A stretch of DNA of 64,000 nt from Bacteroidales bacterium (lineage in GTDB: Bacteria > Bacteroidota > Bacteroidia > Bacteroidales > GCA-2748055). Location of the stretch: assembly GCA_023138875.1 (NCBI GenBank), contig JAGLOO010000047.1, positions 26,056 to 90,055 of the forward strand. The letters are read 5' to 3'. The notes under the pieces were generated by a model. It did not search any database. It saw only the letters and a program-made list of their open reading frames with translations, and was not told the DNA's origin. How positions within the stretch are numbered: the stretch's first letter is position 1; each line of letters opens with the position of its first letter. Of the stretch, positions 2,814 through 20,555 are shown one piece after another. The position numbers and the translations under genes are program-made.

Positions 2814-2911
2814 GGTCCCGAATGATTATTCTCCGATTGAAACCATAAATATACAAATGAAACGCAATGGGTTTTGTACCTTTAATCATCAAATCAGTCA
2901 ATTTGCCATAT

Positions 2912-5212
2912 ATGAGACAGTTCTATATCCTTATCCTTGTGCTGTTCCCGGGTTATATGTCTGTGTTTTCCCAGGAAATGGGACTGAAGGAAAGCAAGGA
3001 ATTTAATAGCCTGGGCGACTATGCCAGGCTGGCACAATTTTCGCCTTACCGGAATTATTTTGCCTATACCATTGGTAATAATACCCTTCGGATCTATAAC
3101 CGGGACTGGGAGAAGGTATTTGAACACCAGGGAAATCCCAGGGCAGTGGGAGGGGTGTTCGCCTTTTCACCTGATGAGAAGTACCTGGCCTACGGACGTT
3201 ATAAAGGGAACAATGATATTGCCATTATTCGACTCGAAGACATGAAGGTAATCCAGGTAATTAACCGGCATTCTGAGTACATTACTCACCTGGAATTTAG
3301 CAACGACGGGGGTTTATTAGTGTCTACCTCATCGGATGGTAGCATGATCATCTGGCAGCATAGGAACGAAGCATTTCATATCCACCAGGTATTTAGTGAC
3401 TTCGAAACCTACCCGAATGAATCGAGTTTCAGCTTTGATGACCGATTCCTGGTGACAGGGGATACCCGGGGCCATGTGCTGGTATTGAAGCGCAGGGAAT
3501 CCACATATGAAAAATTCCAGGAATTCCAGTATCGCAGGCATAGTGTGAAAACTGTGGTTTTTAACCCTAAAGTGGATGAATTTGTGACAGGATCCCTCTA
3601 CGGTTTAAGGAGGTACAGGTTACAGAGTGACGCATTTGTGTTCACCGACTCTGTGGATGACAAAGCCAATGTCGACAATCCGGTCTGTTTCAGTCCTGAC
3701 GGCAGGTACCTGGGAACGTCCAACTACCAGACTGCAGTGATATTCAGGGTATCAACAGACTCCATTTACCCGGTGGATTTTGTATTCAGGCATATGGATA
3801 ATGTATTTGGGGCCACCTTTTCGGAAGACGGAGAGTTTTTCACCACCTTCAGCAGTGATCAACGGGTCATTGTATGGGAAATCGATCATATAAATCCTTC
3901 CGATAAATCCCGGGTCGTGTCATGGCTCAACGCTGATCTTTCACTGGCTCAGCGTCACGCACTGACTCCTTATACAGTGGGCCAGATCATTGGCGCGGTC
4001 GATAAATTTCTGATGCTGCCAAGGGATGAGTTTGAAACATCTGTAGAGTACAATGAGCGGTTGGAAAAGCTCAGTGATTGGACATTGATGATGCTTCAGA
4101 AGGAAATGGAAAGCCTATACAGTGTTCGATCCAGGTCCGGCATGATCGAAATCCCCATCCAGGGCCTGGTGGGTTACAATGCAGATCTTCAAATCTATAA
4201 GATCAAATTCATGGGGACCGAAGCAGGTGTGAGTATTCCCATTCCTGCTGCCCGGAATTTCAAGGAACAGTGGAAAAAAGGGTACATCAGGGCAACAAAA
4301 GAACGCAGTGCTGACGGGGAGAGCTACCGGTATGGGTCTTTCGAGCTTTATAATCCTGCTGATAAAAAGTATTATGTTTTGAATCCACTGGAAAATCCTT
4401 TTCATCTGGAGAATGAAGAGAAGGTGATCCGATCGACCTTCCGGGCTGAACCCGGTAGCGATAGCCTGACGGTAAAGGGAAAAGGTACTACCTATGCATT
4501 GATGTTTGCCTCCAATGTGTATGATTATTATGCAGACCTGGTAAATCCGGTACTGGATGCGCAGACCATTGCCGCTGAGCTGGGAGACAGTTATGGAGTG
4601 GTTTCAGAGGTTGTGATCAATCCAACCCTCTCTGAGACTGCATCGGTCATCAGAGAATTTGCATCCCGGGCTTACAATCCGGAAGATAACCTGATGGTCT
4701 TTTTTGCCGGACATGGGGTGTATGATGAAGTATTCAGGGAAGGGTATGTCATTTCGCGGGATTCCCGCATGGATGATCTGGGCAAGACCTCCTACCTATC
4801 CCATTCCAACCTGCGGACCATGATCAATAACATCGATTGTCCCCATATTTTCCTGGTGATGGATGTCTGTTTCGGGGGCACTTTTGATCCCCATCTGGCT
4901 TCCATGCACCGGGGTGCACCGGCAGTTTATGCAGACATTTCTACACAGGAGTTTGTGGAGCGGAAACTGAAGTACAAAACCCGCCTGTACCTGACTTCCG
5001 GGGGGAAAGAGTATGTGCCCGATGGAAGACCGGGTTTCCATTCTCCCTTTGCCAGGCGTTTTATTGAATCACTGCGCTACTATGGTGGGGATGACGGCGT
5101 GCTGACCACTTCTGAAATACTCCAGTTTGTAGAAAAGGTAAATCCCCAACCCAGGTTTGGTGAGTTTGGGGATAATGAACCTGGCAGCGATTTTATCCTG
5201 GTGGTACGGTAG
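2912..5212 (+). CDS. Secreted WD40-repeat / caspase-like (peptidase C14) fusion protein
   Basis: The ORF track starts at 2867. The ATG at 2912 gives a signal-peptide-like start, MRQFYILILVLFPGYMSVFSQ. WD40-like repeats are present (LEFSNDGGLLVSTSSDGSMIIWQ, FSEDGEFFTTFSSDQRVIVWEI, among others). The C-terminal caspase fold has His in FFAGHGV (codon at 4712-4714) and Cys in VMDVCFGG (codon at 4868-4870). Confidence 0.8.
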   Translation: MRQFYILILVLFPGYMSVFSQEMGLKESKEFNSLGDYARLAQFSPYRNYFAYTIGNNTLRIYNRDWEKVFEHQGNPRAVGGVFAFSPDEKYLAYGRYKGNNDIAIIRLEDMKVIQVINRHSEYITHLEFSNDGGLLVSTSSDGSMIIWQHRNEAFHIHQVFSDFETYPNESSFSFDDRFLVTGDTRGHVLVLKRRESTYEKFQEFQYRRHSVKTVVFNPKVDEFVTGSLYGLRRYRLQSDAFVFTDSVDDKANVDNPVCFSPDGRYLGTSNYQTAVIFRVSTDSIYPVDFVFRHMDNVFGATFSEDGEFFTTFSSDQRVIVWEIDHINPSDKSRVVSWLNADLSLAQRHALTPYTVGQIIGAVDKFLMLPRDEFETSVEYNERLEKLSDWTLMMLQKEMESLYSVRSRSGMIEIPIQGLVGYNADLQIYKIKFMGTEAGVSIPIPAARNFKEQWKKGYIRATKERSADGESYRYGSFELYNPADKKYYVLNPLENPFHLENEEKVIRSTFRAEPGSDSLTVKGKGTTYALMFASNVYDYYADLVNPVLDAQTIAAELGDSYGVVSEVVINPTLSETASVIREFASRAYNPEDNLMVFFAGHGVYDEVFREGYVISRDSRMDDLGKTSYLSHSNLRTMINNIDCPHIFLVMDVCFGGTFDPHLASMHRGAPAVYADISTQEFVERKLKYKTRLYLTSGGKEYVPDGRPGFHSPFARRFIESLRYYGGDDGVLTTSEILQFVEKVNPQPRFGEFGDNEPGSDFILVVR

Positions 5213-5267: not shown

Positions 5268-5741
5268 TTACTCATCCAGTGATTTCGCCTCTTCGCGGTT
5301 CAGTTTAGCCATCCTTACCACCTTTTCTTTTGTAATGGTATTCAATGAAAGGACCACAATACAAAGGATGAAGATGACCAGTTGTTTGGCGTCCTTCAGC
5401 AGGATCAGGCCTACAATCGAAAAAAGTGCTGCACCTTCAATCATTGCCCAGCGGATGATCATGGCTGACTGGAATTGCTCAAATTTTCTCGAAAAGGGAT
5501 CGCCTGGCTCAATGGCCGCCATCTTTCTGTTTGAGATCATATAGCCTGCGGGAATAGAACCAAGCAGTAAAACGTTCACAATCGTCAGTATATCTACCTT
5601 ATCCTTAAAATCTGGTATTGCCATACCATTGAGGTAAACGCCTACAATAAAGAATATCAACAGGCCGGTATTCAGGGAATAAAAGATAATCCTTAAAGTC
5701 CTGTATGCCTGCCGTGGATGAAAATCCTGTCCTATCATCAT
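5268..5741 (-). CDS. Hypothetical small integral membrane protein (about 4 TM)
   Basis: 157-aa ORF with hydrophobic segments. It starts 1 nt after the stop of the upstream gene on the same strand. No motif recognised. Confidence 0.55.
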   Translation of the reverse strand: MMIGQDFHPRQAYRTLRIIFYSLNTGLLIFFIVGVYLNGMAIPDFKDKVDILTIVNVLLLGSIPAGYMISNRKMAAIEPGDPFSRKFEQFQSAMIIRWAMIEGAALFSIVGLILLKDAKQLVIFILCIVVLSLNTITKEKVVRMAKLNREEAKSLDE

Positions 5742-9799: not shown

Positions 9800-10189
9800 C
9801 TATTCTGTGATTTCAACCCAATTACCTTCACAATCTTCAATAACACTTTCATAATAACCATCTCCTGTTGTTCTAGTCTCTCCAACAATTTTAAATCCAT
9901 CAAAACGCAATTTTTCAGTTAGCTTATCAACTTTCCTTTTACTCCCGACTGATATTGAAAAATGAGTTAATCCGAAAGAAGTAGAATTTTCGCCACACAG
10001 CTCTGTAATAGCAGGTCGGCTCATGATTTCTATTCGGGTTGATGCTCCTTCGAACGATAAAAAATAGGAAGAAAAGCTCTTTTTGATGTTGGTGTATTTT
10101 TCGCTACACTTCATTTCAAAATACTTGATATAAAATTCTTTTACTTCTTCTAAATCATGTACCCAAATTGCTAAATGTTCTATTCTCAT
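9800..10189 (-). CDS. VOC/glyoxalase-family protein
   Basis: 129 aa. MRIEHLAIWVHDLEEVKEFY is a typical glyoxalase/bleomycin-resistance fold start, and the C-terminus DCEGNWVEITE fits the family. It lies 3 nt upstream of the HAD gene. Confidence 0.7.
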   Translation of the reverse strand: MRIEHLAIWVHDLEEVKEFYIKYFEMKCSEKYTNIKKSFSSYFLSFEGASTRIEIMSRPAITELCGENSTSFGLTHFSISVGSKRKVDKLTEKLRFDGFKIVGETRTTGDGYYESVIEDCEGNWVEITE

Positions 10190-10697: not shown

Positions 10698-10708
10698 TTA
10701 TTATCAAG

Positions 10709-10782
10709 TGAACTAGAGAGGAGTCGAACCCCCAACCTCCTGATCCGTAGTCAGGTGCTCTATCCAGTTGAGCTACTAGTCC
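10709..10782 (-). tRNA. tRNA-Arg (anticodon ACG)
   Basis: The reverse complement, GGACTAGTAGCTCAACTGGATAGAGCACCTGACTACGGATCAGGAGGTTGGGGGTTCGACTCCTCTCTAGTTCA, folds as a cloverleaf. The acceptor stem is GGACTAG/CTAGTTC, the D arm is GCTC..GAGC, the anticodon stem is CCTGA/TCAGG with loop CTACGGA, and the T loop is TTCGACT. No CCA is encoded. Confidence 0.9.
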
Positions 10783-10853: not shown

Positions 10854-10861
10854 CAAATTTA
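10854..10861 (-). promoter_or_regulatory. Candidate Bacteroidota -7 promoter box (TAAATTTG) for tRNA-Arg
   Basis: The minus strand reads TAAATTTG, matching TAnnTTTG, about 70 nt upstream of the mature tRNA 5' end. Confidence 0.3.
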
Positions 10862-11293
10862 AACAATTCAGTACAATACCAAAACACTTTACCCATATTT
10901 CCAGGGCCAACGCATTTAAAACTCAGGAATTAGGTTTCTGTCAACATTTTTCAGATGATTATTAACAGGGTTTTCTCGCTTATTCGTGCTGTTGTAGCTG
11001 ATATCTTTCTTAAAAATTCCCTTCTCCGTCTTTCAAGATCTGAATGTCACATCATTGTAACATTTCAACCTGGGAAGCAGGATATAAGTATTCCCCCAAC
11101 TCTTTAAATATCAGTTGTATATAATCTTGATGGCAGTAAGGCTATCAAATATGAATGTAACAACAGTGTGATATTAGTATCTTCTGAAATGAAGACTCCT
11201 TTTTCCTGCTTTGTACGATGGGATAATGAGTTCTAGCTAAAAATCCTCACAATTTAAATGCGTTGGCCCTGCCCATATTTTACGTTCCTTTCA

Positions 11294-14695: not shown

Positions 14696-16381
14696 TTAAT
14701 GGGCATCCTGTTTGGGCATTCTCAACTTCTTTCCAGTATCTTTTGCTACCATTTCTTTCCATCTCTCTGAATACCCTGGCTGGTCAGGTCCCAGGGGATA
14801 CCCATCGGGACTTCTCAGGAATTCACCATTTTCCTCCTTTTTAATGTTTCCGTCAATGTATTTCACAAGCAGGAACTGTCCCAGTTCTTTGTACCTTTTG
14901 ACAGTGTAATCTCCCATGCTGACCGAATAGTTGGTGATAAATTCCCTTGCCATTTCCGGATTGGTTTCAAAGAGCACCGCAGCAGCAGCATCTATTGCGG
15001 GGACCTCAGCAAGAAATTTTTGTTCAAGCTCTGATTGTACCTTGTGTACATCCTCCATCATCACATTGTACCTGAGGTAGCTGAAATTGGAGACAAAGCT
15101 GAATGTCCAGAAAGCTGAAGTTTCCGAATAGGTGAGCAAATCACCGTTGCCTACAGCATAGGAATCGGGAACCCTGGTCATTCCACAGTACATAGGTACG
15201 TATGTGGTTGCAGCGGCATCATCAATACCAAACCAGAAGATCCCTCCAAGGAAATCTGGTTTGACAGACCTGCTTTCAGCCACAAAAGAAAATCCTGTTT
15301 GCTGTGTGGCAGCGGCCCTTTCATTGCAATACATTTTGCCATCAGTTTCCCATGTAAGTGGTCTCCAGCGATAGGGGAGGCCAAAAGGTCCTGCTCCTGC
15401 ATCCTTGGTCATATCGAGTTCGGTACCTTCAAGGTGATCCCTCATGAAATCCATCAGGTCAGCATTGGATAATTTCCGGTTCGGTTTGATGTAAAGAGGC
15501 ATCCGGTTATCCAGCTCCTGTCCTTTCACATATTCAAGGTATTGATCCATGTCATCATTGATCTCCTTGAAGAAAGACCAGACACGCACTTCGCAAAATC
15601 TTGCTCCACCGAAATCAACAGGTGCATAAGTGTCAGAAAAACTGAAATTCTCATCGGTTCCTTCATAATATTCTTTTTCGCGTGCAAACGTGATTACATC
15701 GGGAGCATAGAGGCAGTTATCGGGATCATCCTGTGGGAATTGCCGGATCCTGGCCTGGTTGGCATGCCCCGATACATAACCATCAGGAATCCGGACAGCA
15801 ACCCATACAGCCCCTTTGTTTTTATTATAGGTCTTGCCGCCCTCTGTAACCATTCCGGTTCCTTTGCCAATCAGTTCCATGATCCACACTTCGTTGGGAT
15901 CAGCAATGGAGAAAGATTCACCGGAGCTGCAATAACCATGTTCAGCCACCAGTTCACCCATGATGTTCACCGCTTCCCTGGCAGTTCTGGCCCTTTGAAG
16001 GGTGATGTACATCAGACTTCCGTAATCGATAATTCCGGTTGTATCCACCAGTCCTTTTCTTCCGCCATAAGTGGTTTCGCCAATGGCAACCTGATGTTCA
16101 TTCATGTTGCCCACCACCGAATAGGTATGTGAAATCTGGGGGATCCTTCCAAGGAATTTATTGGTATCCCACTCGTACACATCCAGCAGGGTGCCTGCCG
16201 GATAATCTGCTGCCGGTCTGAAATACAACTCTCCATACAATACATGTGCATCGGCAGCATAAGTGATCATTGCCGTGCCATTCACTGATGCTCCCGGGGT
16301 TACCAGGAAGTTGGTACATCCAAGCAGGTTGCTGCTCCATAAGGTCATTAAGATTCCTGTTAATAATACTGCTCTTTTCAT
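14696..16381 (-). CDS. Peptidase family C69 dipeptidase (secreted)
   Basis: A signal peptide is followed by the nucleophile Cys context LLGCTNFLVTPGASVNGTAMITYAADAH, which is typical of C69 dipeptidases. Confidence 0.8.
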   Translation of the reverse strand: MKRAVLLTGILMTLWSSNLLGCTNFLVTPGASVNGTAMITYAADAHVLYGELYFRPAADYPAGTLLDVYEWDTNKFLGRIPQISHTYSVVGNMNEHQVAIGETTYGGRKGLVDTTGIIDYGSLMYITLQRARTAREAVNIMGELVAEHGYCSSGESFSIADPNEVWIMELIGKGTGMVTEGGKTYNKNKGAVWVAVRIPDGYVSGHANQARIRQFPQDDPDNCLYAPDVITFAREKEYYEGTDENFSFSDTYAPVDFGGARFCEVRVWSFFKEINDDMDQYLEYVKGQELDNRMPLYIKPNRKLSNADLMDFMRDHLEGTELDMTKDAGAGPFGLPYRWRPLTWETDGKMYCNERAAATQQTGFSFVAESRSVKPDFLGGIFWFGIDDAAATTYVPMYCGMTRVPDSYAVGNGDLLTYSETSAFWTFSFVSNFSYLRYNVMMEDVHKVQSELEQKFLAEVPAIDAAAAVLFETNPEMAREFITNYSVSMGDYTVKRYKELGQFLLVKYIDGNIKKEENGEFLRSPDGYPLGPDQPGYSERWKEMVAKDTGKKLRMPKQDAH

Positions 16382-16576
16382 ATTTCCCTCAACTTTTAAC
16401 TTTTAGACTTTTGATTATCGGCTTAAAGATTCCACTTTTATCCTTAACTACCAACAGATCCTATTGAATAACATAAGAAATCTTGCGGGATTTCCGCTAT
16501 GTATTTATACTTGCGGCATAATTTTTGTAGTTATTTAAAAGAAGTAGTTTAGTTGGTAGTTTTAGTTAGTTAGGTA

Positions 16577-16607
16577 GAAAAGGGTATGTCGCCAGACGGC
16601 CCTTTTC
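16577..16607 (-). terminator. Intrinsic terminator after the alcohol dehydrogenase gene
   Basis: 8-bp stem GAAAAGGG (16577-16584) / CCCTTTTC (16600-16607), immediately downstream of the minus-strand stop at 16614. Confidence 0.5.
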
Positions 16608-16613
16608 TTTCTT

Positions 16614-17753
16614 TTAGAACACGTATGTCAGCAACTCTTCGCGTTCCGGATCAGAAAGTTTGTGGTGGATTCCTTCGGCATGGTTCTTATTCATCAATTC
16701 GAGGATCTCATTTCGGTGTGATGCATCAATGCCGGCATCAGCGCATTTCACCGGACTTCCAAGCAAAGAAAAGTAAGCCTTAAACTCCTTAATGGTCTCA
16801 TCCACATCGGATTTTCCAAATAACTCAAGGCCCAGTTGCTCAATCCTGTTTTTTGCCCTCATTTTCATTACTTTCATCCAGGCCGGGTACAGGATGGAAA
16901 GGGTTGCGCCGTGTGGTGTGTCGTAAAGGAAAGAGAGCACATGTCCCAGTGCATGTACGCCCCAGTCGCCTGAAGATCTGCCATATATGGTCAGGTTATT
17001 CAGGGCATTGGTAGCAGCCCACATGATCCTTGCCCTGAGGTCATAATTTCCGGTATCGTTCATCAGGGCAGGGCCGTATTCCAGGGCCTCCCTGATAATG
17101 GATACAACAAATCGATCAGACAGGGATGCATCCCCCTCCCCAAACCAGGCTTCCAGGCTATGGGCAATCAGGTCCACAGTACCAAATGCAGTGTAGTTTG
17201 AAGGAACTGAAAGTGTATAGGTTGGATCAAGGAAAGAATGGGCGGGATACAGAAGGTCATTTTTAAAACCGATTTTCTCCCTGGTCTCATGGTTTTGAAG
17301 TACGGCTATTGCATTCATTTCGGTTCCCGTTGCAGCCAGTGTGAGTACAGCAATGATCGGCAAAGCCCCGGAAGGTTCATGCTTGCCGGTCATTACCTTC
17401 CAGGCATCACAATCATCTGGAATACAAATGGCAATGATCTTTGCCGAGTCGATCACACTTGCTCCTCCTACAGCGACAACCATATCCACGCCTGCTTCCT
17501 GTCCGGTTTTTACTGCTTCCTTCACATCATCCACCGCCGGATTTGGTTTGATCCCACTGATTTCTGTAACACCGATACCTTGTTCCTCCAGCTGTTTAAG
17601 GGTGTCTGAGTAGCTGCCGTTCCGCAGGACAGAACCCCCTCCATACACCAGAAGGGCGTGTTTTCCAAGTTGTGATGCATTGATTCCAAGGTCGTTTACT
17701 ACTCCACTACCAAAGTGAAGCTTTGTAGGATTGTAGGCAATAAAGTTGTTCAT
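16614..17753 (-). CDS. Iron-containing (group III) alcohol dehydrogenase, YqhD/butanol-dehydrogenase-like
   Basis: 379 aa. Contains LLVYGGGSV and VVAVGGGSVIDSAK-like (VVAVGGASVIDSAKII) nucleotide-binding motifs and the His-rich metal site (HALGHVLS). Confidence 0.85.
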   Translation of the reverse strand: MNNFIAYNPTKLHFGSGVVNDLGINASQLGKHALLVYGGGSVLRNGSYSDTLKQLEEQGIGVTEISGIKPNPAVDDVKEAVKTGQEAGVDMVVAVGGASVIDSAKIIAICIPDDCDAWKVMTGKHEPSGALPIIAVLTLAATGTEMNAIAVLQNHETREKIGFKNDLLYPAHSFLDPTYTLSVPSNYTAFGTVDLIAHSLEAWFGEGDASLSDRFVVSIIREALEYGPALMNDTGNYDLRARIMWAATNALNNLTIYGRSSGDWGVHALGHVLSFLYDTPHGATLSILYPAWMKVMKMRAKNRIEQLGLELFGKSDVDETIKEFKAYFSLLGSPVKCADAGIDASHRNEILELMNKNHAEGIHHKLSDPEREELLTYVF

Positions 17754-17761
17754 GGTGTTAT

Positions 17762-18832
17762 TTATTTTTTGTTTTCGTGAATGATTCCGGCGGAAAGATC
17801 ACTTTTGCCACCGGTAGCACTGGCAAGGCAATTGATATCACCCAGCATCCTTAATAAACCAAGCAATGCAAATACCAGCGCTTCTTTAAACTGAACCAGC
17901 AGATCATCAGGTATGCGTATCCGGGCTTCTGCATGATTCTGTAACCTCTCCATCAGCATTTGGTTCAACGCACCTCCCCCTGATGCAAGCACCGAATCTA
18001 TCCCGGACGAGTTTATTGCGGAGGAAATCTGTATGGCAATATGTTCCACAAGGGTGGCCATCCGGTCACTAATGGGCAGGTTTTCTTTGTCAATCTCAGG
18101 CAGGAAAGTATCCAGGAACCATTCTCTACCCAAAGATTTTGGAGGATGGGTACTGTAGTAGTCCAGGTTATTCAGGGTATTGAGTAAACCTGTATGCACA
18201 TGGCCCTGCCGTGCAATGGATCCATTATGATCGTAGTCGAGGCCCATTAATCCTGCAATCCGGTTTAAGGCCATGTTCGCCGGACAGACATCATAAGCAA
18301 TTCTCTGGTTGAACTTGTCTTCATAGGAGATATTGGCAAATCCGCCCAGGTTCAGGCATGCATCATAGTTGCCAAAAAGTAACCTGTCACCCACGGGTAC
18401 AAGTGGTGCTCCCTCTCCTCCCTGTGCTACATCTTCCTTTCTGAAATCATTGACCACTGTCAATCCGGTTTTTTCCGCCATGATCCCACCATGGCCTGCC
18501 TGGTAAGTAATTCCTTTATCTGGTTCGTGCAGGATGGTATGTCCGTGTGATGAGATAAGGTCCGGGGCAAGGTTGTGAATGGAGTGGAATTGATTGATCT
18601 GGGATGCAAAAAACTCCCCTAATTCAATATTTAGCTTATCAATTTTCTCCATGCTCCATTTGCATGCCTGTTCGAGCTTATCCCTGGTATCAACAGGATA
18701 AGGGAGGGTTTCTGCTGCAATGATCCTGAACCTCCACCCAGACCCATCCCTGGAGAACTCGCAACAGGCCAGGTCAACACCATCCAGGGATGATCCCGAC
18801 ATTAGTCCGGTTACTGTGTACATATCAGTCAT
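17762..18832 (-). CDS. anmK: Anhydro-N-acetylmuramic acid kinase
   Basis: The N-terminal GLMSGSSLDGVDLA motif and overall length (356 aa) are typical of AnmK. Confidence 0.85.
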   Translation of the reverse strand: MTDMYTVTGLMSGSSLDGVDLACCEFSRDGSGWRFRIIAAETLPYPVDTRDKLEQACKWSMEKIDKLNIELGEFFASQINQFHSIHNLAPDLISSHGHTILHEPDKGITYQAGHGGIMAEKTGLTVVNDFRKEDVAQGGEGAPLVPVGDRLLFGNYDACLNLGGFANISYEDKFNQRIAYDVCPANMALNRIAGLMGLDYDHNGSIARQGHVHTGLLNTLNNLDYYSTHPPKSLGREWFLDTFLPEIDKENLPISDRMATLVEHIAIQISSAINSSGIDSVLASGGGALNQMLMERLQNHAEARIRIPDDLLVQFKEALVFALLGLLRMLGDINCLASATGGKSDLSAGIIHENKK

Positions 18833-18842
18833 GGCAAGGTTT

Positions 18843-20555
18843 CTACCATGTATAAGTAGTGTGAAATAGATTTACATTTCCCTTCGCATCAGAAACATAG
18901 AGTTCCAGTTCATGGGTGGTGTTGCGGGCTGTTTTTTCACTGTCAAAGGTATAGGTAAGAAGATTATTCTTTGGATCAAATTCAAACAGGGCCCAGCCGT
19001 TGTCGATATAGCCTTCGTATTTTTCAATTCCGGAAAGATCATCGCGTATGGTAAATTTCAGCGCTTTCTTACCTGAAAGATCACTGGCTGCAGATCCATT
19101 CAGCGGAATGATCTCCGGAGCAATTGTATCAACGGATATGGCATAACTCCCGAAGCTTCTCAGGCTGGCCACCACTGCTCCGTTTCGATATTCACCTCCG
19201 GCAGATGATACTACATCTTCATTATCATAAGTAATAAGCAACAGTTTGTTAAGGAGTGAGGTCTCCATACCCTCGGCTTTAATGGAGAGGATATAGGGCA
19301 GGTGAACCGGGGTTTCAGGTGTGTGTATATGGAAGATATCGGTCAGTGTTCCATTTGTCCGGGGTGATGTCGCATACCTGAATTCCAGGTCCTGGTACAG
19401 GGCATTGACCGGTATTTCCACAGTCACTCTACCTTGGTCAAACCTGTTTGGTTCATCATATTTCATGATCTTTACATAGTTGTGATGAGGTGGGTCCACT
19501 GGTAATACCTCTCTTTTTCCGGTTACCTGGAATTTGAGCTCTGACCGGTTTCCAGTCACATCGGTGGCCACTACCCGGATGTTATATATCCTGTTTTCTT
19601 CCATATCCAGGATCCCGTTCTGAATAAGCTGACCGTATATTCGCATCCGGTCATTTGGAAGACGCAGGAGGCGGTGTACCTTGGTTCCGGATCGGATCCT
19701 TTCACCATAATCAATGTGTGCATTAATATACCGGGTTTCGGAAAATGAAAACTCATTCATCACATGGCTGTAAGTCAATTCATCATCCACGAATAGTTGC
19801 AGGGTGTATACACCACACCGGTTTGATGATCCATTCAGATAATCAAATACTTCAACTCCAAATCCGAGGGTTCCGGATGCATCGATCACTGCACCGGATG
19901 GCAGGGTGTAGCATCCATTCTCTGAAACCACCTTAGAAATTAGCTTCTCCGCTGATCCGTTCACCTGACTTCCGTTGCTCGTGGGATAGACATGCAGTGA
20001 AAGGAATCTGGGAGCAACACGGTCCACAATGTCAAAGTTATACTTAAGAACATTGGTGGGATGTTGATTTCCTGAAGTGCGGATTTCAAAATGGAGATGT
20101 GGACCTGAAGAGCTTCCGGTGTTTCCTGAATAGGCAATAAACTCCCCCTTTTCCTGATGGAAGCGATCAGGTTTCAGATAGATATCTACTCCATGGGACC
20201 TGCGCTGGTATTGAATACTTTTCACATATGCTGCAATATCTGGCCGGAAGCGGTCAAGGTGACCATATACCGAAGTATATCCATTTGGATGTGCTATGTA
20301 GATCGATTTTCCGTAACCGTTCGCCTGGACTTTTATCCTGGAAACATATCCGCTTTCAATGGAATAGATATGGTGACCGGTGACCCCCTGGGTTTTTATA
20401 TCGATACCTGAATGAAAGTGATCAGAACGAATCTCACCAAAGTTACCTGAGAGATACATGGGGATTTCTAATGGTGGGCGGAATGATATTTCGCTCTGTC
20501 CAGGTACCTGTAATATAATGATTTGGGATAGAAGAATCAGTATCAGTCTACACAT
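18843..20555 (-). CDS. M23-family metallopeptidase with a large C-terminal extension
   Basis: HSGIDIKT and GNTGSSSGPHLHFEI motifs (HxxxD / HxH of LytM/M23), plus a signal peptide. Confidence 0.85.
   Translation of the reverse strand: MCRLILILLSQIIILQVPGQSEISFRPPLEIPMYLSGNFGEIRSDHFHSGIDIKTQGVTGHHIYSIESGYVSRIKVQANGYGKSIYIAHPNGYTSVYGHLDRFRPDIAAYVKSIQYQRRSHGVDIYLKPDRFHQEKGEFIAYSGNTGSSSGPHLHFEIRTSGNQHPTNVLKYNFDIVDRVAPRFLSLHVYPTSNGSQVNGSAEKLISKVVSENGCYTLPSGAVIDASGTLGFGVEVFDYLNGSSNRCGVYTLQLFVDDELTYSHVMNEFSFSETRYINAHIDYGERIRSGTKVHRLLRLPNDRMRIYGQLIQNGILDMEENRIYNIRVVATDVTGNRSELKFQVTGKREVLPVDPPHHNYVKIMKYDEPNRFDQGRVTVEIPVNALYQDLEFRYATSPRTNGTLTDIFHIHTPETPVHLPYILSIKAEGMETSLLNKLLLITYDNEDVVSSAGGEYRNGAVVASLRSFGSYAISVDTIAPEIIPLNGSAASDLSGKKALKFTIRDDLSGIEKYEGYIDNGWALFEFDPKNNLLTYTFDSEKTARNTTHELELYVSDAKGNVNLFHTTYTW

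Follow-up and report, generated by a model that had tools for sequence, protein, structure and literature searches.

Does a bacterial protein that joins WD40 repeats to a caspase-like protease have to be a cell-death or immunity device, and what might it do instead when it is exported? The question is raised by one gene, at positions 2912–5212 of a 64,000-nucleotide stretch of a Bacteroidales genome (contig JAGLOO010000047.1), referred to below as the window. WD40-fused bacterial caspases are normally read as cytoplasmic death or immunity machines, and a preliminary description of the window had read this gene as the exported counterpart of conflict and death modules of the NLR or apoptosome type. 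Here the evidence points to a location beyond the cytoplasm, in which ATP could not drive oligomerisation, and the catalytic domain is assigned from sequence comparisons to a divergent, Bacteroidota-specific exported branch of the C14 peptidases. The reading that we favour, with some but not strong confidence, is a soluble periplasmic C14 cysteine protease that is targeted by its propeller, probably cuts after Arg or Lys and processes itself, and has a constitutive role in the cell envelope.

Anatomy and export of the precursor

The reading frame is open from 2867 to 5212 on the forward strand (781 aa), with an internal ATG at 2912 that gives a 766-aa product with the N-terminus MRQFYILILVLFPGYMSVFSQE. 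Pfam matches, AlphaFold2 (AF2) models and alignments bore out, well above chance, the four-part anatomy of the preliminary description: one protein that combines a signal peptide and a WD40 propeller with an unassigned middle region and a C14 domain whose His/Cys dyad is intact. The middle part comprises a domain and a linker. The features were as follows.

2912..5212, + strand: complete gene, 766-aa precursor, TAG stop at 5210–5212 (stop codon checked; list of open reading frames, orthologue lengths, aligned starts)
2867..2911, + strand: upstream in-frame extension MGFVPLIIKSVNLPY, probably untranslated
2912..2971, + strand: Sec/signal-peptidase-I signal peptide, aa 1–20, predicted cleavage between Ser20 and Gln21; features kept in nearly all of 113 homologues
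2972..2974, + strand: Gln21, +1 residue of the mature protein under the Bacteroidota Q-rule, pyroglutamate expected; invariant in the orthologue alignment A1
2975..3895, + strand: seven-bladed WD40 beta-propeller, aa 22–328 (Pfam, AF2, Foldseek)
3896..4402, + strand: alpha/beta 'post-propeller' domain, aa 329–497 (AF2 of aa 325–525), with no described relative
4403..4486, + strand: variable linker, probably flexible, aa 498–525; identity 0.18, predicted local distance difference test score (pLDDT) ~31, length varying in alignment A1
4487..5209, + strand: Peptidase_C14 catalytic domain, aa 526–766 (PF00656, PDB profile search, conservation)
4712..4714, + strand: catalytic His601, CAT codon within FFAGHGV (4700–4720)
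4862..4870, + strand: Asp651-Val652-Cys653, with the catalytic Cys and, at C-2, an Asp predicted to be the S1-pocket residue; codons checked
4910..4912, + strand: Arg667, candidate autoprocessing site 14 residues past the catalytic Cys; invariant in alignment A1

The N-terminus, MRQFYILILVLFPGYMSVFS followed by QE after the predicted cut, has the features of a signal peptide. N-termini were compared in 113 full-length homologues, with the hydrophobic core taken as the 10-residue Kyte-Doolittle maximum. Gln occupied +1 in 109 of them and stood one residue off in the remaining four, and 103 had S, A, G or T at -1. A basic start (mostly MK or MR) was combined in nearly every untruncated N-terminus with a strongly hydrophobic core, the maximum of which was ~2.1–3.75. 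The AF2 model had a helix at the N-terminus followed by a low-confidence stretch at aa 14–20. Mean identity over the signal peptide was only 25%, as against a Gln21 that is invariant in alignment A1, which is the pattern expected of a functional signal peptide. A Gln at +1 corresponds to the Q-rule of Bacteroidota signal-peptidase-I substrates (PMC5837995, PMC10653852). The family-wide conservation of this site strongly supports the export that had been proposed for the protein.

A true start at 2867 had been named as an objection to the signal peptide. Among the best 120 of 445 homologues the start nearly always falls at the position of 2912, and the extension MGFVPLIIKSVNLPY was common only to P0001 (92% identical), the closest relative, among the aligned orthologues. 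A few others had longer, unrelated N-terminal extensions, which resembled gene-call artefacts. The alternative of a cytoplasmic protein, translated from 2867 and with a hydrophobic N-terminus that is not a signal peptide, can point to the open frame and to the gene call of P0001, which uses the 781-aa form. It is hardly credible: besides the aligned starts, the segment has low identity and nonetheless keeps its basic start, its hydrophobic core, the small residue at -1 and the Gln at +1, and in the long form the hydrophobic core would still lie among the first 36 residues.

None of the 113 homologues had a lipobox Cys at +1, and the NCBIfam and Pfam scans gave no match to a lipoprotein model or to a C-terminal sorting domain of the type IX secretion system (T9SS; Por_Secre_tail or other). 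The C-terminus of the protein is part of the conserved caspase domain in alignment A1. With no T9SS domain, no lipobox and a C-terminus inside the catalytic domain, the protein is most likely soluble in the periplasm. Of the periplasmic or surface role suggested earlier, the periplasmic half is thus backed by the signal peptide, and the surface half, with neither lipobox nor T9SS domain, is not supported.

The caspase-family domain

Peptidase_C14 (PF00656) matched the whole protein with 49.5 bits (aa 528–743) and the isolated domain with 53 bits, against a threshold of 21.4, which supplied the profile support for family C14 that the preliminary description had called for. The dyad that it read from FFAGHGV and DVCFGG was correct at codon level, the TGT codon of Cys653 lying at 4868–4870 within DVCFGG (4862–4879). 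His601, Cys653 and Asp651 were kept in 118 of 118 full-length orthologues, all with a His–Cys spacing of 52 residues, which implies that the family holds no pseudo-enzymes. In the wider subfamily (n = 99) the His was present in all members, and the Cys motif was located in 92 and had the Cys in every one. The profile search of the PDB recovered the caspase-1 p20 subunit (E 6e-4), caspase-4 and the yeast metacaspase Yca1 (E 0.013). In the profile alignment the GHG of the catalytic domain faced the SHG of caspase-1, and Leu543 fell at the position of caspase-1 Arg179. No similarity to C25 or C13 was detected, the Pfam and PDB matches being to C14 only.

Two residues ahead of the catalytic Cys, Asp-specific caspases have a Gln (Gln283), and the Arg/Lys-specific MALT1 and TbMCA2 have an Asp (Asp462 and Asp211, respectively; PMC4357240). 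Because Asp651 stands at the position of caspase Gln283 and MALT1 Asp462, and a Leu rather than an Arg at that of Arg179, the enzyme probably has a basic P1 specificity, with cleavage after Arg or Lys. An R[GA] pair was found at C+13 to C+15 in 117 of 118 orthologues, and at C+11 to C+15 in 91 of 92 members of the wider subfamily. Caspases are processed ~14 residues past beta4 (PMC4357240), and the invariant Arg667 at C+14 makes self-processing at this residue a reasonable hypothesis; we consider it probable.

AF2 was least confident in the most conserved domain (aa 526–766, nt 4487–5209), whereas it modelled the less conserved propeller and middle domain well, probably because the 30-sequence alignment is shallow and has little variation in the caspase domain.

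The propeller and the domain behind it

The WD40 family PF00400 matched with 61.4 bits against a gathering threshold of 27. The AF2 model of aa 22–328 had ~28 strands, with pLDDT mostly between 84 and 95. A Foldseek search of the PDB with this model retrieved G-beta and the bacterial seven-bladed WD40 propeller of PkwA (5yzv), with E ~1e-17 and TM-scores on the target that reached 0.89. The earlier reading of a WD40 propeller was therefore right in kind and too low in its blade count, which was ~6 and is seven by the AF2 strands and Foldseek. The sequence also matched the WD40 region of Apaf-1 (E ~4e-15), and a match to TolB was weak and below threshold (13.7 bits). The propeller may plausibly act as a sensor of a substrate or ligand.

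Between propeller and protease, the preliminary description had left a single region of ~190 aa unassigned. It has found no assignment here either, and it proved to be two regions, a folded domain of ~170 aa and a variable linker of ~28 aa. Modelled on its own (aa 325–525), this part gave a mean pLDDT of 83. Its helical part consists of five helices and contains a conserved RDEFET..EY..R motif (nt 4022–4039 onward), after which comes a long helix; the beta part behind it has eight strands and one helix and bears the motifs GYNAD and ENPFH. Pfam gave no match to the domain even at E<=10, the sequence-profile search of the PDB gave none, and Foldseek, the structure search that had been recommended, found no relative in the PDB (best E 0.16, TM-score 0.19). 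A homology with the Ig-like N-domain of the Cytophagales caspases described below was considered and rejected (hhalign probability 0.2%).

Searched with a profile, 1.84 billion representative proteins yielded 209 clusters with the middle domain at E<=1e-3, of which 62 remained at E<=1e-10. WD40 repeats preceded it in 44–46 of 66 scanned matches, and of the 123 matches with a Met start and at least 300 aa, 101 had a hydrophobic N-terminus. Several architectures were seen: WD40, middle domain and C14, as in the 766-aa family; WD40 and middle domain alone (~480–560 aa); and WD40, middle domain, a GDCDDLS...PGH region and TPR (~1,035–1,060 aa). The GDCDDLS...PGH region matched Transglut_core below threshold only (17.9 bits vs 23). 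Further variants carried CARDB and C14. From these architectures the middle domain is to be seen as an undescribed companion of putatively exported propellers, and the WD40 and middle domains together behave as a portable module.

The proteins P0249 and P0267 (~1,036–1,058 aa), which are encoded outside the window, have a signal peptide, WD40 repeats, the middle domain, the GDCDDLS...PGH region and a C-terminal TPR. The module of propeller and middle domain in these two precedes a different domain, which is probably cysteine-peptidase-like and transglutaminase-like.

Conservation and distribution

The search with the whole protein returned 445 proteins at E<=1e-5. The best 120 were almost all full length, with 49–92% identity and nearly all 766–768 aa long, and came from metagenome-assembled genomes (MAGs) of Bacteroidota, Bacteroidales and Marinilabiliales. 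When one genome of each GTDB species was scanned for motifs, 507 loci encoding relatives were found, of which the best 80 belonged almost all to uncultured Bacteroidales or Bacteroidia, with a few Cytophagales. No full-length relative was found in the plasmid or phage collections. A mobile-element origin was rejected on this ground and on composition, the GC content of the gene and that of its third codon positions (GC3) being like those of the adjoining genes.

Mean pairwise identity, computed per region among 30 orthologues, was 0.77 for the caspase domain, 0.51 for the middle domain, 0.48 for the propeller, 0.25 for the signal peptide and 0.18 for the linker. Nonsynonymous divergence (dN) against four orthologues was 0.04–0.09 in the caspase domain, 0.21–0.26 in the middle domain and 0.24–0.35 in the propeller; synonymous divergence (dS) was saturated against all usable orthologues, so that only dN and rough ratios are given. 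All domains are under purifying selection, which is very strong on the catalytic domain. The locus of highest identity in the genome scan (L062, 8001–10300; 90%, in a long-read MAG) gave nonsensical dN values; its span of 2,300 nt is not a multiple of three, which suggests a frameshift or an assembly indel.

The search with the catalytic domain only found at least 2,203 proteins (protein clusters) at E<=1e-10. Many were Cytophagales proteins of 385–398 aa (Cyclobacteriaceae, Chryseosolibacter, Flammeovirgaceae), with a Q-rule signal peptide, an Ig-like domain of ~110 aa and a caspase domain 55–59% identical to that of the window protein. Over the sister architectures that contain this caspase, identity in the catalytic domain was 52–59%. 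A 514-aa protein (L078, 7176–8720) had a signal peptide, an unknown domain, an Ig-like domain and the caspase, and at L080 a signal peptide was followed by TPR, an Ig-like domain and the caspase. N-termini of signal type were present in all examples read (P0177, P0204, P0239, P0143, L078, P0249, P0267, P0279 and P0285). The variety of N-terminal modules before this caspase subfamily indicates that exported caspase-family proteins are widespread in Bacteroidota, with the WD40 form as one of several. For its phylum the protein is nothing unusual; the same subfamily occurs in thousands of exported Bacteroidota proteins. On the sequences collected, the exported branch appears to be largely confined to Bacteroidota.

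Two side observations concern sister proteins. The short Cytophagales group is exemplified by P0177, P0204, P0239 and P0143, and literature searches found no study of it. The locus L077 (6918–9947) encodes an exported protein of 1,009 aa in which two successive WD40 propellers are followed by an Ig-like domain and the caspase.

Genomic neighbourhood

The caspase gene is flanked on both sides by genes of the opposite strand and is monocistronic. Its neighbours in the window are a divergent upstream Na/Pi cotransporter with a PhoU domain, a 157-aa membrane protein, a TIM-barrel isomerase, a DUF1254/DUF1214 protein and an outer-membrane beta-barrel protein. Linkage to the Na/Pi gene was seen only in the closest clade (at least 63% identity). 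In a clade of ~50% identity the upstream genes encode propionyl-CoA carboxylase subunits, and those downstream an Ogt-type methyltransferase, a glyoxalase and a redoxin. The comparison of neighbourhoods that had been recommended found, in those examined, no conserved neighbour across clades; the neighbours are ordinary metabolic genes that differ from clade to clade. Among the neighbours that were most frequent or had a Pfam annotation, none was evidently a defence, toxin, effector or gasdermin-like gene. The earlier statement that the gene stands alone, with no obvious partner, agrees with these results.

Two candidate partners were rejected, the Na/Pi cotransporter because other clades have different neighbours, and the 157-aa membrane protein (5268–5741) because it lies ~1.3–7 kb from the gene end in relatives of the same clade. 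This membrane protein (5268–5741, - strand) is predicted, has no Pfam match and is 66–74% identical in 12 related loci. The cotransporter (753–2813, - strand; Na_Pi_cotrans and PhoU) has a signal-like N-terminus and, before the transporter domain, ~140 aa without a Pfam match, possibly an Ig-like extension outside the cytoplasm. Downstream of the caspase gene, a small gene of the glyoxalase family is found both in the window (9800–10189, - strand; a few kb away) and at L081 (10871–11338, - strand; a few hundred bp away), and its occurrence in the clade of the window and in the ~50%-identity clade may be a remnant of ancient synteny.

Upstream of the caspase gene, no strict Bacteroidetes promoter (TTTG-N(17-23)-TAnnTTTG) was found, and a sigma-70 scan performed no better than on shuffled sequence. 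A version with one mismatch was recognised by eye, TCAATTTG at 2898–2905, and was not used as evidence for the start codon. A perfect promoter motif of the Bacteroidetes type, TTTG-N18-TAAATTTG, at 10854–10883 (- strand) precedes a single tRNA-Arg (anticodon ACG) at 10708–10782 (- strand) and is one of only four exact matches to the motif in the window. A run of genes for cell-wall and peptide turnover occupies 14696–20555 (- strand) and includes a C69 dipeptidase (14696–16381), an Fe-alcohol dehydrogenase, the anhydro-MurNAc kinase AnmK (17762–18832) and an M23 peptidase (18843–20555); it lies at least 9 kb from the caspase gene, with no shown link to it.

Envelope protease or death switch

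In the favoured reading, cleavage between Ser20 and Gln21 would leave the mature protein in the periplasm. Its propeller and middle domain would serve to dock a target, either a protein or a peptide, and the catalytic domain would cut this target, while docked, from its flexible tether after Arg or Lys. The enzyme itself would mature by self-cleavage at Arg667. As its role, we consider most likely that it constitutively processes or turns over proteins of the cell envelope or periplasm.

No P-loop NTPase (NACHT, NB-ARC or other STAND) was found in the Pfam and NCBIfam scans at E<=1, and the region between propeller and protease was modelled by AF2 as a helical bundle with a beta-sheet. The NCBIfam model caspase_w_EACC1 (NF047832) scored 48 bits against a cut-off of 140, and PADLOC returned a generic 'caspase' match only (21.9 bits, E 2e-5). 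The periplasm is without ATP. An envelope protease is more likely than a death or immune switch driven by NTP, because there is no NTPase, no ATP at the predicted location and no conserved partner, because the EACC1 model falls far below its cut-off, and because the architecture is fixed and purifying selection acts on every domain. The conflict or death module of the preliminary description is thus not supported: besides the missing NTPase, the EACC1 score and the lack of a conserved defence or effector gene in the neighbourhoods examined, it is opposed by the fixed length, the very strong selection on the catalytic domain and the lack of full-length relatives in the plasmid or phage collections. 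Membership in NLR/STAND, EACC1-type or gasdermin-type systems, among T9SS cargo and among lipoproteins was tested in each case and rejected.

Several points weigh against an envelope protease as we picture it. The PDB alignment ends at the catalytic His and so covers the N-terminal half of p20 only, and the caspase domain was modelled by AF2 with a pLDDT of 30–60, so that its fold and S1 pocket are taken from profile matches and motif positions only. Export, the cleavage site, P1 specificity and autoprocessing are all read from sequence, and the protein may instead be associated with the outer membrane or secreted through an unrecognised route. The gene context indicates no substrate or partner. 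The WD40 and middle domains also stand before a different, probably cysteine-peptidase-like domain, and effector swapping of this sort is typical of conflict systems as well.

This last point leads to the main alternative, an extracytoplasmic conflict, surveillance or programmed-death module that works without an NTPase. In it the WD40 and middle domains would sense a foreign or damage ligand in the periplasm (phage, predator, toxin) and free the caspase against the envelope or the invader. Among the fusion partners of prokaryotic caspase homologues WD40 is the most frequent (10.9% of 671 sequences in a 2012 survey), and such proteins are mostly discussed in connection with cell death (PMC3501461). 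The combinations found here fit as well, the exported WD40 and middle domains preceding C14, a probable transglutaminase-like domain with TPR, or nothing, and the caspase subfamily being joined to alternative N-terminal modules; the weak PADLOC and caspase_w_EACC1 matches point the same way. Such a module is nevertheless unlikely. To the low EACC1 score and the missing NTPase are added the lack of a conserved neighbour and, among the most frequent or Pfam-annotated neighbours, of any evident defence or gasdermin-like gene, the lack of full-length matches in plasmid and phage collections, a fixed length with clade-specific synteny that is consistent with vertical descent, and purifying selection on all domains with no sign of a hypervariable sensor. 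Quite unlikely, too, is a broader scheme in which the WD40 and middle domains would be the sensor of an unrecognised NTPase-independent class of extracytoplasmic surveillance in Bacteroidota, activating a tethered cysteine-peptidase effector (caspase or transglutaminase-like) that would kill the invader or dismantle the cell's own envelope.

Nutritional and transpeptidase roles are also less likely than envelope processing. In the former, the protein would be a periplasmic peptidase whose propeller restricts or feeds oligopeptides to the protease, with the propeller-bearing S9 peptidases of Bacteroidota and gingipain-like protein degradation as analogues. It is generally known that Bacteroidota export many clan CD and propeller-containing peptidases (see the clan CD review, PMC4357240), extracellular protein degradation has been speculated for Bacteroidetes metacaspases (PMC4933709), and the C69 dipeptidase at 14696–16381 would suit this role. 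The propeller, however, is a WD40 of the G-beta type, which typically binds proteins, and it is separated from the protease by a 170-aa domain and a flexible linker, so that it is not packed as a gating propeller would be. The protein has no T9SS C-terminal domain, no peptide-transporter or peptidase gene is linked across clades, and the extreme conservation of the catalytic domain would be unusual for a digestive enzyme of broad specificity. We regard a nutritional role as improbable, to about the same degree as a conflict module. Clan CD includes transamidases, and the sortase-like PorU and GPI8 belong here, so a transpeptidase or ligase, or a non-catalytic scaffold, may be considered in place of a hydrolase. 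The only observations related to this are the export and the high conservation of the catalytic domain. The matches to C14 only, with no C25 or C13 similarity, argue against a transpeptidase, as does the lack of linked candidate acceptor or cargo genes, and the intact dyad argues against a scaffold; both are very improbable.

Significance

Surveys have described the general kind of protein, a bacterial C14 peptidase with WD40 repeats and sometimes a signal peptide, since 2012, and many prokaryotic caspase homologues were then reported to have an N-terminal hydrophobic helix, probably a signal peptide (PMC3501461). In the databases such proteins carry generic names ("caspase family protein" at NCBI, "WD40 repeat protein" at JGI). 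What is new is the well-supported extracytoplasmic location, the reversed architecture without an NTPase, the undescribed middle domain and the size of the exported Bacteroidota caspase branch. This architecture is fixed across hundreds of uncultured Bacteroidales genomes. If a defined periplasmic substrate exists, the protein would be a new kind of envelope protease for Bacteroidota biology, and it would advise caution against equating a bacterial caspase joined to WD40 with programmed cell death. The practical value lies in a well-defined target for biochemistry, one that will not greatly surprise a specialist.

Comparison with known systems

Orthocaspases and bacterial metacaspase-like proteins (MEROPS C14B) resemble the window protein in the Peptidase_C14 match, the His/Cys dyad and the Asp at C-2, which predicts cleavage after Arg or Lys. 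The window protein differs from them in that the propeller is N-terminal and the caspase C-terminal, NACHT and NB-ARC are lacking, the protein is predicted to be exported and an undescribed domain stands between the two parts. Its catalytic domain is remote from all solved C14 structures (best E 6e-4), and literature searches found no experimental study of the exported C14 branch. The short Cytophagales proteins share its caspase subfamily, whereas their Ig-like domain is unrelated to the middle domain.

With the Apaf-1 apoptosome and the bacterial STAND and EACC1 caspase systems, the protein has in common a WD40 sensor propeller and a caspase-family protease. Unlike in those systems, there is no NTPase oligomerisation domain, sensor and protease are joined in one exported polypeptide, and no associated effector genes were seen.

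TolB, the S9 prolyl-oligopeptidases and DPP4, and tricorn are periplasmic and have a propeller that binds or selects ligands beside a second domain. The propeller of the window protein is a canonical seven-bladed WD40 of the G-beta type and not of the PD40 or POP type, and the catalytic domain, in contrast to the propeller-capped serine hydrolases of the S9 type, is a tethered cysteine protease. The gingipains (C25), PorU and C11 enzymes such as PmC11 come from the same phylum and belong, like the window protein, to the His/Cys proteases of clan CD; some cleave specifically at basic residues, as is generally known (see also PMC4357240). Q-rule signal peptides are typical of extracytoplasmic proteins in Bacteroidota. 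The window protein belongs to C14, lacks a T9SS C-terminal domain, a lipobox and a recognisable prodomain, and bears a WD40 propeller in place of the Ig-like or adhesin domains of those enzymes.

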